From IMG/VR virus record IMGVR_UViG_3300016484_000752, positions 1 to 40,534 of that record: DNA of 40,534 nucleotides. The stretch is one strand, 5' to 3'. The notes beneath the pieces were generated by a model. That model was not told where the DNA came from. It searched no databases and saw nothing but the letters and a program-made list of their open reading frames with translations. Of this stretch, positions 23,450 to 30,295 are shown piece after piece (the first letter of the stretch is position 1; each line of letters opens with the position of its first letter). The DNA comes from a virus. Taxonomy: Duplodnaviria > Caudoviricetes. The position numbers were made by a program, and so were the translations under genes.

Positions 23450-25090
23450 TCACCCGCCCTCAACGTCTTCGGCCGCGATGCAGCGGCCGGTTTTTTTGTC
23501 GATGCGCAGCAGGCGGCCGGTGCCGCCGCGGGCGATCAGGAGCATGTCGATCTGGCCGTTGGGCGTCTCGGCCGGGCGGATGCCGTGGTGGTAGATGACG
23601 ATCGCGGCGAAGGTGTCGGCCACGAGCTGGCGGGCCTGCAGGCGGGCGTCTACGTCTTGGGCTTCGACGCCTTCGGCGAGGGTGCGCCAGGATTCGTCGG
23701 CGCCGGTCAGGTCGGCGCGGGCTGCGGCGGCCAGGTCGCGCTCTGCGGCGTCGACGGCGGCCTGGGCGCTGGCCTGCTGGGCTTCGAGCTCGCGGGCTTT
23801 GCGGGCCCAGGCCATGGGCGTACCCTCGGGGCCGGCGCTGAGCAGGGCGGCGGTGATGCGGTCGATCTGCTCGGTGATGTGGGCCAGGTGCTGGCGGGCG
23901 TTGGCCAACGTGGCGCGCGGTGCGGCGGCGCGGTCGGCGCCCTGCAGCGATTGCAGGTTGGCCAGGTCGGCGCACCAGGTCATCAGGGCGCGCTCGATCG
24001 GCGCGACGGAGACGCTGCCGGGCACGGGGCAGCGGTCGCCGTGGGTGTTGCTGGTACACAGCAGCCGGCGGTGGCCGTCGTGGATGCGGCCGTCGGGCTG
24101 GCGGCGGCGCGTGCCGATGTTCTGCCCGACGATGGCGCGGCCGCAGTACCCGCAGGTGGTGATGCCCAGCCCGGTGATGATGTGCGGGACCGGCCCGCTG
24201 GCCTTGCGCCGGCCGCGCCCGGCGGCCAGGGCCTGCAGGGCGTCCCATTCTGCTCGGCTGAGCAGGGCGGGGTAGTACCCGGGCAGGCGCCAGGCGGTGC
24301 CGTCCAGCGTGAGTTCTTTCTCACCCAGCAGGGCGCGCTGGTGGATCAGGCGGTAGATCTGCAGGCTTTGTGACCCGCGCGGCGTGAGCGACAGGCCCTG
24401 GGTGTGCAGCCGCGCCACGATGGCGCTGGCACCGTGTCCCATGCGGTACAAGCGCAAGGCCTCCAGCACGGCGGCGGCGCGCTCGGGCACGATGTGCCAG
24501 GCGTCGTCCCGGCGGGTGATCCACGCGGGGTCTTTGCCGTTGCGGATGACGCCGCGCCAGGTGCCGGCCATCCACTGCTCACACTGCCGGCGGATGGCGG
24601 CCTTGACGCGTTTGGCCTTGGTGTCGCTCTCTTCGTGCGCGCGGATCATCACCAGCAAACTGTAGACCAGGTCCATGGGGTTGACCTTGAGCCGTTCGCG
24701 GCTGTAGGCCTTGCCGTCGCTGGCTGTGACCACCGTCAGGCCGGCGTTGATGATCTGCGCCAGCTGGGCCTGCGCCTGGATGGGCTCAGCGCGTGAGAGG
24801 CGGTCCAGCGCTTCGACCACCAGCACAGAGCCGGCCGGTACGCGCCCGGCTTCGACCGCGGCCAGAAACGTGCCCAGCGCGCCCGAGCGCACATGCTGCT
24901 GGTGATAGGCGGATAATCCCTCATCCCGCAGCGTGAGCGATTCGTCCAGCACCAGACCGTGCTCGGCCGCCCAGCGCGCCGCGTAAGCGGCCTGCCGCTC
25001 GCTGCTGCTGCCCGCCGCCTGGCGCGGATCGGAAAACCGCAAATACGAATACACCCGCGCCACCCCGGCGCCACCACTGTCCACCACCAT
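23450..25090 (-). CDS. int: Large serine integrase
   Basis: YLRFS catalytic Ser, DEGLSAY, VEALDRLSR, recombinase domain, Zn ribbon CGYC...C..C, coiled coil. Confidence 0.95.
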   Translation of the reverse strand: MVVDSGGAGVARVYSYLRFSDPRQAAGSSSERQAAYAARWAAEHGLVLDESLTLRDEGLSAYHQQHVRSGALGTFLAAVEAGRVPAGSVLVVEALDRLSRAEPIQAQAQLAQIINAGLTVVTASDGKAYSRERLKVNPMDLVYSLLVMIRAHEESDTKAKRVKAAIRRQCEQWMAGTWRGVIRNGKDPAWITRRDDAWHIVPERAAAVLEALRLYRMGHGASAIVARLHTQGLSLTPRGSQSLQIYRLIHQRALLGEKELTLDGTAWRLPGYYPALLSRAEWDALQALAAGRGRRKASGPVPHIITGLGITTCGYCGRAIVGQNIGTRRRQPDGRIHDGHRRLLCTSNTHGDRCPVPGSVSVAPIERALMTWCADLANLQSLQGADRAAAPRATLANARQHLAHITEQIDRITAALLSAGPEGTPMAWARKARELEAQQASAQAAVDAAERDLAAAARADLTGADESWRTLAEGVEAQDVDARLQARQLVADTFAAIVIYHHGIRPAETPNGQIDMLLIARGGTGRLLRIDKKTGRCIAAEDVEGG

Positions 25091-25190
25091 GTCTCAATCC
25101 CCCGTGAACCCAGCCCGCGTGCCCAGTATAGGGATGGTATCGCTTGGGTGCCCGAAGGATAGGCCACTTAAACCGCCGCCCAGGACGTGA
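25089..25190 (+). other. rimO: attP region encoding a replacement 5' end of rimO (33-codon mini-ORF)
   Basis: Reads MSQSPVNPARVPSIGMVSLGCPK-DRPLKPPPRT*. (I/V)GxVSLGCPK is the RimO N-terminal signature. Imperfect dyad centred on GGG-TG-CCC (25146-25153). Confidence 0.85.
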
Positions 25191-25217
25191 AAAAGCCCGC
25201 TTTGTGCGGGCTTTTTT
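25190..25217. terminator. Bidirectional intrinsic terminator
   Basis: AAAAAGCCCGC-tttgt-GCGGGCTTTTTT, giving a U-tract on both strands. Confidence 0.9.
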
Positions 25218-25231
25218 GGGGGCGAAATTGG

Positions 25232-25272
25232 ACGCCGGCAGTCGCCAATTTGTCATCTGTTGCTATAGTTTT
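25232..25272. repeat. ~40-bp direct repeat, copy 1
   Basis: ACGCCGGCAGTCGCCAATT-N8-GTTGCTATAGTTTT. Confidence 0.85.
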
Positions 25273-27066: not shown

Positions 27067-27531
27067 TCAGTTGTCGCCGGCCAGCCCGGCAAGTGTGAAG
27101 TCGCCGAGAAGGATGATGATGTGTTCAGGGTCCGGGCCGTCGCAGGCGCCGTCGAATTGGACGGCTTCTCCGCTGGCGATCAGGTAGTTCACGCAGTCGC
27201 TCAGGTGCTGGTCTGCTGTCAGGGCGTCGCGGGTGATCGTGTATTCGTCCGGGACGCCGGTGCTGACGCCATCAGACTCGATCAGTTCGTGCGCGGCCAG
27301 GGATGCGATGCGGTGGGCCAGTTCTGTGCGTGTGGGGTTGTCTGCCTGGCGGGTGCGCAGTTCCTGCCAGTAGGGGATCAGGTCAGCGGCAATCGTCGGG
27401 TGTTGGAGCGTCCAGACGATGAGCTGGTTGATGTGCAGCGGCAGATCGCCTCTTGATATGCCGATGCTGGAGCCGAGGGCTGTTCGGGCCCTGTAGACGG
27501 CTTCCACGGTCTGCTGGGTGTTGGCGCTCAT
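27067..27531 (-). CDS. Hypothetical protein (154 aa)
   Basis: ATGA overlap with the ParB-like gene. Part of the leftward operon. Confidence 0.7.
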   Translation of the reverse strand: MSANTQQTVEAVYRARTALGSSIGISRGDLPLHINQLIVWTLQHPTIAADLIPYWQELRTRQADNPTRTELAHRIASLAAHELIESDGVSTGVPDEYTITRDALTADQHLSDCVNYLIASGEAVQFDGACDGPDPEHIIILLGDFTLAGLAGDN

Positions 27532-29672
27532 CCCGCACCGCCTTCCCGCTTCTGCGGGTGCGGCACCAGGTCGAGCTCGGTGGTGTGGAAGACTTGCTCA
27601 TTGATGGTGTGGTCGCCTTTGGTCTTTGACCAGATGCTGACCAGCCAGGCTTCGGGTCCGGCTTTGTTGACGATGTTGCCCTGCCGTCCGGACCATTTGG
27701 TGGCTTTGGCTTTGGGGGTGACGGTGCTGTTGATCTTGACGACGGAGCCGACCCCGAGCTGTGTGCTGCCCGGGCCTGCAGCGGGTGCGGGCTGGGGGGT
27801 GGCACCGGTAGGCTGGTCGGTGGCCGGCGATGCGCCGCAGGACGCATCGCCTTCGTCCAGGCCTTGCATCGCGGCAGCGATGCCTTGAGCTGCCTCCTGG
27901 GCGGTGGTTTTGGGCTTGGGTTTGGGCGCAGCCTTGGGCGGCTTGGCCGGGGTGTTTTTGGTTTTGGGCTTTGCCCCGTCCGCATCACCGCCGGCCGGCG
28001 CAGCAGGGGTCGGGGGTGTAGGGGGCGTTTGCGCTTGGGCCTGGGCTTCGGTTTTGGCCTGGTCGAGGCTTTGGGCGCGGATTTCTTCGGCGTTGACGCC
28101 GTGCTCGCGGGCGATTTTGGAGAGGAATTCGGCGTTTGCGTCGTTCTGTGCGTCCAGATATGAAAGGGTCGCATGCTCCACGAGCAGCAGCAAAGCCAGT
28201 GCTTCGTCGGGGTCGGCTTCGTCCTGGATCCAGTTGCGGATGCCGGCACTGGTGGCCACGTTGCCGAGGTTGGCGATTTGCGCAATCAGTGCTTCTTCAG
28301 CCGGGGCGATGTAGAACTCAAGGATCATGAGCGCCAGTTGGCGCATGGCGACTTCGGGCAGGATGTAGCCGGTTTTGGAGCGCTCGCGCTCACGCTGGAT
28401 GGCCAGCCATGTTTGCTGCAGGGTGCTGAGGCGCCAGCGGGTTTCGTGCTCGGCCATGGCCTGGGCTGCGGCCTGGGCCTGGCGGTCGGCGGCGGTGGCT
28501 TGGGCGTGGGTGGGACCGGTGCCGGTGGTGCCGGCGCCTTTGGGTGGGTCGGGCAGGTGGCCGGCTTTGCGCAGCAGGTGGTCTGCGGCCTGGGTGGGCA
28601 GGACGGCGATGAGGGTGCCGGGGTTGTGGGGGTCTGCAATGTAGGTGGGGGTGCCGGCTTTGGCGATGGCGGCGTCACCCAGCAGGAAGCGCAGGGGTGG
28701 CTGGCCTTTGGGGGTGTCGCGGGCGTCGTCCAGGCGGCGGTAGCCGGGGATGGCTTTGGGGTCGGGCCGGGGCATGAGCAGCCGGGCGTCGTCGCCGTCG
28801 ATGATGGTGGCGCCTTGGGCCAGCACGGCGGCGTGCTGGCGCTGGACGTGGGCGGCGAGTTTGGCCTGGTGGCAGGGTGGGTCGGTGCAGAGGTCTGTGG
28901 CGGAGACGTCGGCGAAGAGGTCGCGGTCGGCGCCGGTGCGTTTGGGGCAGGTGCTGCAGGGCCCGGCGGCGGGGAGCAGGGTGGCATCGCTGGTGGGGAA
29001 GCACGCGTTTTCGAGCCGCAGCATGTAGTGCTGCTGGATGTGGGCGCTGGCGTCGCGGGCGCTGTAGTCGTGTTGCACCAGCTCGGCCGTGGCTTTGGCC
29101 TGCAGGGCGGTGTCGGGGATGCGGGCGAGCAGCAGGGCGCGGCTGAAGTCGATGGCGCCTTCGCGCAGGGCGGTGCGGCCTTCGTGCCCGAGCGCGAGGA
29201 GTTTGAGGCGGGCGTAGACGTAGCTGCGGCTTTTGCCGATGCGGGCGGCCAGTTCTTCGGCGCGCTGGCCGGTGGCTTGCAGGAGGTGTTCGTAGCCTTC
29301 GGCTTCGTCCAGCGGGGGCACGTCTTCGCGCTGGAGGTTTTCGATGATCTGGACTTCGAGCGCTTCGGCGTCGGTCATGTCGGTGCAGATGGCGGGGATG
29401 TCGGCCATCTTGGCGAGCTGGCTGGCGCGCAGGCGCCGTTCGCCGGTGATCAGCTCCCACGTGGGCAGCGGCTGGCCGGGAAGGCGCTGTTCAAAGGTGT
29501 CTTGCAGCCGCGCGGGCGGGATGGGGCGCACCAGTACGGGCTGGTGCACGCCGCTGGTGAGGATGCTGGCCGCGAGCTCTTCCAGGCCGGGCAGGCTGAA
29601 GTGTTTGCGCGGGTTGGTGAGGCTGGGGGTGATGGCCGCCAGCGGGAGCAGGGTGTAGGTGGGGGTAGTCAT
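27528..29672 (-). CDS. ParB/RepB/Spo0J-domain protein (714 aa)
   Basis: NPRKHF, GVHQPVLVRP, ITGERRLRA, IENLQREDV, HTH AEELAARIGKSRSYV, Cys cluster CSTCPKRTG...CTDPPC. Start moved to ATG 29672. Confidence 0.88.
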   Translation of the reverse strand: MTTPTYTLLPLAAITPSLTNPRKHFSLPGLEELAASILTSGVHQPVLVRPIPPARLQDTFEQRLPGQPLPTWELITGERRLRASQLAKMADIPAICTDMTDAEALEVQIIENLQREDVPPLDEAEGYEHLLQATGQRAEELAARIGKSRSYVYARLKLLALGHEGRTALREGAIDFSRALLLARIPDTALQAKATAELVQHDYSARDASAHIQQHYMLRLENACFPTSDATLLPAAGPCSTCPKRTGADRDLFADVSATDLCTDPPCHQAKLAAHVQRQHAAVLAQGATIIDGDDARLLMPRPDPKAIPGYRRLDDARDTPKGQPPLRFLLGDAAIAKAGTPTYIADPHNPGTLIAVLPTQAADHLLRKAGHLPDPPKGAGTTGTGPTHAQATAADRQAQAAAQAMAEHETRWRLSTLQQTWLAIQRERERSKTGYILPEVAMRQLALMILEFYIAPAEEALIAQIANLGNVATSAGIRNWIQDEADPDEALALLLLVEHATLSYLDAQNDANAEFLSKIAREHGVNAEEIRAQSLDQAKTEAQAQAQTPPTPPTPAAPAGGDADGAKPKTKNTPAKPPKAAPKPKPKTTAQEAAQGIAAAMQGLDEGDASCGASPATDQPTGATPQPAPAAGPGSTQLGVGSVVKINSTVTPKAKATKWSGRQGNIVNKAGPEAWLVSIWSKTKGDHTINEQVFHTTELDLVPHPQKREGGAG

Positions 29673-30295
29673 GGGGCGGCGTGGTGGTGGGGGGTGTGGT
29701 GGTGGCTGGGATGGCCGCGGCGTGCGTTGGGCAGGGTGCCGGTGTGGCGCAGCAGCTGGGCGAAGGGGTTGGCGGCGTTGGCGGCCATGGTGCGCAGGTG
29801 GCGCACGGTGGATTTGCTGCAGCCGATGCGGGCTGCGGCTTTGCCCAGGCTGTCGGTGCTGGTTATGGCGTCGTGCCGCTGCTCGGGGGTGAGGGCGCAA
29901 GGGCGCTGCCGGCTGGCGCGGGTGATGGCGGCGTTGCGGCGCAGCCGATCGCCCGGGGTGATGGCTTTGGCCAGCGCCGCGGCGTGTTGTGACTTGGTGC
30001 GCCGCACGATATGGTCAGGCGCGATGCACTGCGGGTGGCCGCAGGTGGTGGCGTAGACGCTGTCCACGCGGCCGGGCTTTTTGGCCTGCTTGCGCGTGAC
30101 GGGGCAGCCCTGCAGCCATTTGATGAGGCGGCGCACGGACCACATGGTGCGCACGGGTGAGATGGGGTTGGTGACGCACACTTCGGGGCGGCCACTGTGG
30201 TTGTCGCGGTAGCCCTGCCAGAGCAGGCAGTCACCGTCTTCAACGGTGTTGGCCAGCAGGCTTTCTACGGTGTGGATGGTGGGTGGCTTGGACAT
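29669..30295 (-). CDS. Degenerate HNH-like domain plus C-terminal HTH
   Basis: DGDCLLWQG...CGHPQCIAPDHI and SLGKAAARIGCSKSTVRHLR. Confidence 0.7.
   Translation of the reverse strand: MSKPPTIHTVESLLANTVEDGDCLLWQGYRDNHSGRPEVCVTNPISPVRTMWSVRRLIKWLQGCPVTRKQAKKPGRVDSVYATTCGHPQCIAPDHIVRRTKSQHAAALAKAITPGDRLRRNAAITRASRQRPCALTPEQRHDAITSTDSLGKAAARIGCSKSTVRHLRTMAANAANPFAQLLRHTGTLPNARRGHPSHHHTPHHHAAP

Follow-up and report, generated by a model that had tools for sequence, protein, structure and literature searches.

A highly probable phage attachment site carrying a replacement 5' end of the host gene rimO next to a large serine integrase gene

The stretch of DNA analysed here, referred to as the window, comprises the 40,534 nucleotides of virus record IMGVR_UViG_3300016484_000752 from a tailed phage (Duplodnaviria; Caudoviricetes). 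Divergent from a large serine integrase gene on the minus strand (int, 23450-25090), a short reading frame on the plus strand (25089-25190) starts with a RimO-like N-terminus encoded at 25089-25148, and its translation, MSQSPVNPARVPSIGMVSLGCPKDRPLKPPPRT*, confirms the RimO-like peptide described in a first-pass annotation of this DNA. Genes for terminase, portal, head, tape-measure and lysis functions lie to the left of the site, while ParB-like, primase-helicase and HNH genes are found to its right. This mid-genome place between the integrase and the early genes is as expected of an attP. The individual features are as follows.

23450-25090, minus strand: large serine integrase, 546 amino acids as the longest open reading frame, with an in-frame GTG at 25063 as alternative start (Pfam domains, PHROG integrase, identity to the JC1 enzyme, start survey).
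25089-25148, plus strand: replacement rimO 5' end of 20 codons, from Met to the Gly before Cys, within the predicted attP P arm (translation; arm survey; an almost identical arm, ARVPSIGMVSLG, joined to the complete rimO in genomes G407 and G408).
25125-25130, minus strand: TATACT box, 19-24 nt from the core and part of AGT ATA in the rimO frame; predicted to be the outer motif bound by the integrase and possibly the -10 box of int, both functions being putative (of 87 arms, 40 have TATACT and 38 TATACG; TATAC mirrored in the P' consensus).
25137-25141, minus strand: GATAC inner dyad box, GTA TC in the rimO frame (GATA mirrored in the P' arm consensus).
25149-25150, plus strand: predicted crossover dinucleotide TG, with which the Cys codon begins (dyad peak; sole sequence common to attL and attR in 16 of 16 two-ended lysogens).
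25151-25190, plus strand: P' arm with GATA at 25158-25161 and TAAACC at 25169-25174, whose stop codon TGA at 25188-25190 would terminate the host-derived stub at attR (a stop within 15 codons in 42 of 47 P' arms; amino acids not conserved).
25190-25218, no strand assigned: hairpin flanked by an A-tract and a T-tract and predicted to act as a bidirectional intrinsic terminator (int-sense polarity better conserved; annotated terminator at the equivalent place in JC1).

The product of 23450-25090 is assigned to integrase in PHROG and contains a Resolvase domain (PF00239; 47.6 bits versus a cut-off of 23.3, E 2e-12) as well as a Recombinase domain (PF07508; 28.7 bits versus 21.1, E 2e-6). The zinc ribbon Zn_ribbon_recom (PF13408) scores 22.5 bits, which is under the cut-off of 25.3, and C313, C316, C345 and C354 are invariant in ten sequences. 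Also invariant, in integrase alignment A1, is a Y-x-R-x-S motif which we take to be the catalytic motif. Over 98% of its length, the protein is 58% identical to the serine recombinase of phage JC1. As the nearest in-frame start of int usually lies 7-10 codons before Y16 (71 of 87 cases surveyed), GTG 25063 is a real alternative to ATG 25090.

Within the window, the pattern G.[VI]SLGC occurs a single time across all six frames, and rimO itself was sought in the 40,534-base record and not found. The imperfect dyad described earlier for the Cys codon indeed has its centre at TG 25149-25150 and shows 14 matches over 25 ungapped positions. This is weak alone, and the dyad score by itself was rejected as evidence for an attP because 143 of 40,474 window positions score equally. 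Compared with Pfam and NCBIfam, the 33-residue peptide alone gave no family match. With a peptide lacking a family match and a weak dyad, the case rests on the comparison with relatives, where it goes far beyond chance. Two side observations concern the surroundings of the site: a 790-residue open reading frame with a ParB-like domain (27528-29900, minus strand) occurs in a phage that also integrates, and contigs from three other runs match the int-att-terminator stretch up to 25271-25272 and then diverge, marking a module boundary.

For this comparison, 194 loci were pooled (the window, L001-L020 and L041-L213), two of the underlying searches contributing their best 80 each, and duplicates across collections being included. 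An integrase N-terminal motif is present in 189 of the 194 loci, and among the 139 with at least 150 bp upstream, SLGC adjoins int in 109. In bacterial genomes, all four loci with an integrase homologue show a complete rimO in head-to-head orientation, and a family-level sample yielded the integrase in 13 of 401 genomes, with a phage arm fused to rimO at 11 of the 13 loci. SLGC does not adjoin int everywhere: 30 of the 139 are without adjacent motif, 14 of them having a rimO 5' motif further off and 16 having none in the DNA fetched, which indicates that part of the integrase family has another layout or target. In one subgroup (L009, L018, L081, L084, L087, L091, L094, L109, L176, L178, L180, L186, L187 and L200) the rimO-type arm is situated further from the integrase gene, and phage LPPA36 (L018) has a 402-codon gene separating the two. 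Another set (L163, L182, L192, L195, L196, L198 and L017, the latter being phage Bcep176) displays a GG(C/T)TGCC-like core and TATAT boxes 50-100 bp upstream of int, with no rimO reading; these integrases probably form a subfamily with another target. Xanthomonas phage Rb1 (L020, about 1380-1480) carries a rimO-type attP arm beside its integrase.

Both ends of integrated relatives, attL with the phage arm joined to rimO and attR with the host stub joined to the phage P' arm, were seen in ten virus records and six genomes, and they are 38-47 kb apart in the five genomes that have both on one contig. Sphaerotilus natans ATCC 13338 is a natural lysogen whose two prophage ends are separated by 43 kb. 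While attL and attR of individual pairs have 3 to 16 bases in common, the intersection over all 16 pairs is exactly TG, a result that is independent of the one pair originating from an unpublished genome (G003). Host stubs at attR, which the first-pass annotation had placed at the other prophage end, reach a stop within 2-17 codons in 16 of 16 cases. The attR search covered 30 of the stub-pattern matches as loci, corresponding to a part of the 13 integrase-bearing genomes; with the first stub pattern, no attR was matched in G001 or G002. Near-identical elements exist both free and integrated (L065 versus L064 and L235; L041 versus L201 and L251). For this phage, attL and attR junctions were sought in the contigs of four runs, a search that can establish presence and not absence; none was found, only the attP form being assembled, and contigs from three other runs span int, att and terminator without a joint. 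Close relatives of this phage are integrated in rimO, among them those whose arms are fused to full rimO in G407 and G408; in G408, the P arm at attL is almost as in the window and the terminator at attR is very similar to that of the window. As a separate observation, rimO at the attL of L139 reads SLGCAKALTDSE, the phage Ala codon after Cys being kept past the TG crossover. This does not agree with a clean TG crossover unless a host allele, gene conversion or an assembly chimera accounts for it.

Wherever the attL of a relative provided enough DNA, the phage arm was in frame with rimO, giving at least 400 open codons (35 of 35 loci). The product from the lysogen of one relative (L004) scores 524 bits with TIGR01125, for which the cut-off is 357, and this L004 product aligns to PDB entry 4JC0 from residue 14, i.e. 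from the replaced strand onward. The crossover Cys is the first of the UPF0004 motif Cys-x35/36-Cys-x~30-Cys (spacing read in four attL loci), and the relevant passages of PMC5352715 describe this Cys motif as binding the second cluster of RimO and the function of uS12 methylthiolation as remaining to be established. Hence, the statement that integration into the 5' end of rimO rebuilds a full gene, being the repair half of what the first-pass annotation had proposed in its title, is supported by the in-frame rimO at the attL of relatives and by the experimentally shown integration of JC1 at rimO (PMC9144972, section 3.9). The rewiring half is unsupported.

On this comparative evidence, the site is very probably a real attP of the neighbouring large serine integrase that carries a replacement rimO start. 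The integrase would recombine attP with host rimO at the TG of the first Fe-S-binding Cys codon, whereupon RimO would obtain a new start codon and its first β-strand from the phage arm, and the lysogen would likely keep a working RimO. The arm would be read twice, as integrase-binding DNA (GATAC, TATAC) and as the protein segment P-x-I-G-hydrophobic-V-S-L-G. A promoter located in the initial codons of int may drive the rebuilt rimO, and int may be transcribed from a separate promoter on the retained arm; the hairpin may serve mainly to keep phage early transcription from passing through att. The purpose would then be gene rescue, not regulation.

Across the arm survey, the new rimO ATG is located 11-68 bp from int codon Y16, so that the promoter most likely overlaps the int coding sequence. 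To this extent, the geometry agrees with the earlier idea of rimO being transcribed from inside int; no such promoter was detected in the window, in which a scan for sigma-70 consensus promoters gave none inside int and one site downstream at 25242-25269, and in which the TAAACT/TATACT hexamer present inside int in many relatives is absent. The CATG at 25088-25091 is indeed common to the ATG of the rimO frame and that of the longest integrase open reading frame, but was rejected as a conserved design, since an in-frame shared CATG is found in only 20 of 84 arms. The bidirectional terminator suggested earlier to follow the stop codon has the expected build, with 100% complementary arms (25190-25200 and 25206-25216), an A-tract before and a T-tract after, although the hairpin at 25190-25216 was not called in a simple terminator scan of the window and its two polarities are not equally conserved: among 26 attPs, the A-tract, which would terminate transcription on the int-sense strand, occurs in 17 and the T-tract, which would do so on the rimO-sense strand, in 11, with 6 having no perfect stem. 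Because the int-sense polarity is better conserved, the more likely role of the hairpin is to protect int from read-through out of the early genes in the free phage, and int protected in this manner would have its own promoter in the att region; the TATACT on the retained arm is a candidate for its -10 box. The earlier point that int loses its upstream phage sequence on integration has to be corrected accordingly, as int is likely insulated from upstream phage transcription already in the free phage.

The alternative of regulatory rewiring, in which integration would alter the expression or activity of rimO together with int expression so that lysogeny tunes uS12 methylthiolation, is considered unlikely. 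It can draw on the loss of the native upstream region of rimO, where many native loci have a GACAAT-like box shortly before the ATG, on the preference of phage arms for Met at the residue before VSLGC, which is Phe in 28 of 28 native RimOs of one family sample, and on a putative -35 region of int that would straddle the crossover. In another family sample, however, 9 of 28 native RimOs have Met at this place, and the phage-type N-terminus thus falls within natural variation; Gly-Met had to be rejected as a phage-only signature for the same reason. A control of uS12 modification or of int expression by lysogeny is unsupported. According to the passages of PMC9144972 on the JC1 lysogen, moreover, streptomycin resistance was the same and the modest differences in growth were not linked to rimO. 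The terminator and the TATACT box additionally suggest an int that is insulated in both states. Among the native loci L272-L299, many have the GACAAT-like box only 6-8 nt before the rimO ATG, which suggests leaderless transcripts. The gene upstream of rimO in these loci is presumably phaR.

Whether the arm is conserved as protein or as DNA was assessed with 87 non-redundant P arms, for which Ser-Leu-Gly was part of the search pattern and is therefore left out as evidence. Over 14 codons, the rimO frame is free of stops in 87 of 87 P arms, and an in-frame ATG is present in 84, as compared with 2 and 0 in the other two frames; among 47 P' arms, 16 contain stops in the mirrored register. Gly-6 (84 of 87) and Pro-9 (76 of 87) lie outside the search pattern, are encoded by all four codons and are unmirrored in P'. 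The ATG, the open frame and the synonymous Gly-6 and Pro-9 on the P side, none of which is mirrored in P', argue for selection acting on the protein, in line with the earlier conclusion from the preserved peptide. The codons described as atypical are rare in the window (AGT 3.4%, ATA 2.7%, GTA 5.6% and CTT 8.5% of their synonyms in ten long open reading frames), but they do not represent recoding for its own sake. Read on the opposite strand, AGT/CGT ATA and GTA TC give TATAC(T/G) and GATAC, two boxes found again in P' at an equal distance, and hence the atypical codons are mostly due to the attP dyad boxes at those positions; the CTT codon is not conserved (14 of 87 arms). From the anatomy of serine-integrase attP sites, GATAC and TATAC are predicted to be the inner and outer integrase-binding motifs, respectively.

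A peptide that is not under selection as protein and arises solely because integrase binding requires attP and attB to be similar in DNA sequence would be compatible with this explanation of AGT ATA and GTA TC by boxes mirrored in P', and with the part of the inner motif that the host B arm has in common. It is nevertheless very improbable and largely refuted by the in-frame ATG, the lack of stops and the P-side restriction of synonymous Gly-6 and Pro-9, given that the mirrored P' arm retains the boxes and not the amino acids. Even less credible is a captured host rimO fragment or a mis-assembled prophage end (attR), as which a rimO-like start running into unrelated sequence and a stop might be taken, because phage genes flank the site on both sides, its left arm is phage-type and adjoins int, unlike the host-type K/R-V/I-G-F arms of attR stubs, and the contigs of three other runs cross it without a joint. 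As an attP with a replacement rimO start, the site offers a clear case of DNA serving both as recombination site and as protein code.

The rescue mechanism is already published for JC1 and is common in this integrase family. In the passages of PMC9144972 concerned, the serine recombinase gp1 of JC1, a Burkholderia phage of the genus Lessievirus, integrates into the rimO 5' end, and a phage ATG maintains the reading frame of RimO, of whose first 10 residues 6 are altered and whose function is predicted to be retained. Both phages exhibit the same head-to-head layout with SLGC arm and terminator. JC1, however, is a 61-kb podophage with an arm of 13 codons, whereas the present 40.5-kb record has tape-measure and major tail genes and an arm of 20 codons, and the 18-bp overlap given for JC1 in PMC9144972 is narrowed to TG by the family comparison. 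The same source, in the part drawn on, describes other Bcep22-like phages as being without the attP of JC1; contrary to this statement, Bcep22 (L019, about 1400-1480) has an equivalent rimO-type arm, MTKAKSIHFISLGCP*, adjoining its integrase, which adds an attP-like arm in that phage. In a further system, the dusA-associated integrases (DAI), elements are described in passages of PMC4482086 as inserting into the dusA 5' end and supplying a replacement first β-strand and a putative promoter. Here too, the element enters the 5' end of a translation-modification gene with the same kind of rescue, but the DAI are compared with tyrosine recombinases and target dusA/dusB, while a large serine recombinase and rimO are involved in the present case. 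Insertions in the same target gene have been listed for the serine-type Variovorax prophage J1_pp_2 of 39.8 kb (PMC9658991, Table 2), for islands of Acidithiobacillus ferrooxidans (PMC10322971) and for an element of Polaromonas CJ2 (cited in PMC4482086); the passages in question give the insertion site alone, without replacement N-terminus or crossover analysis. Since the core trick is already published, the site itself is an ordinary further example. What the comparison adds is the exact crossover and, for a family of serine integrases with its site in a widely conserved gene, a large number of natural attP/attB pairs. Moreover, that rimO has been preserved repeatedly and independently implies that uS12 methylthiolation is of value for fitness.

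Upstream of the host stub, three attR ends have DNA resembling the 5' end of an integrase gene on the opposite strand. A pattern built from this DNA matched 2 of 401 genomes of the order and 16 of 201 genomes of one family. In the relic loci read, rimO is uninterrupted past the core in 15 of 15, and a close family integrase was not found in any of these 15 genomes, one of which has a 35% identical recombinase elsewhere. Over 41 bases, the 15 relic loci have 28-36 in common with phage int 5' ends, and a profile of 90 int segments retrieved 8 of the 15 at E<0.01 versus 0 of 28 in each of two sets of other native loci, a test that is partly circular because an 8-base anchor stood in the search pattern. 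Two further profile matches in the second control set belong to loci with long integrase matches, which are lysogens. Independent of the anchor, L304 keeps decayed integrase residues 6-102 (E 2e-7) and L302 residues 48-83 (E 5e-6), while tblastn of the integrase against the short upstream stretches was too weak for most relics. Four relic loci are identical at their 5' end, letter for letter, to the JC1 host rimO primer, and their N-terminus differs from that of JC1 at 6 of the first 10 residues, as PMC9144972 reports for its host in the passage concerned; primer identity and residue difference together point to a Burkholderia-type relic lineage.

These relics allow a tentative interpretation, which we rate as somewhat short of an even chance: the first codons of int may hide an outward promoter driving rebuilt rimO, which Burkholderia-type hosts may have domesticated by keeping the decayed int 5' end after loss of an ancestral prophage. 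If so, the 'native' attB would be an old phage arm, which would also explain the unusually long 18-bp attP/attB overlap of JC1. The relic may work as a rimO promoter, in which case one could trace how a host gene acquired its regulatory region from the coding sequence of an integrase. A literature search for a description of the relic or of the family as a whole, which covered sources other than subscription papers and the supplements of integrase surveys, returned only the JC1 report, the dusA paper and site listings. In L300-L314, L215, L225 and L226, the relic is located about 45-75 bp upstream of the rimO ATG.
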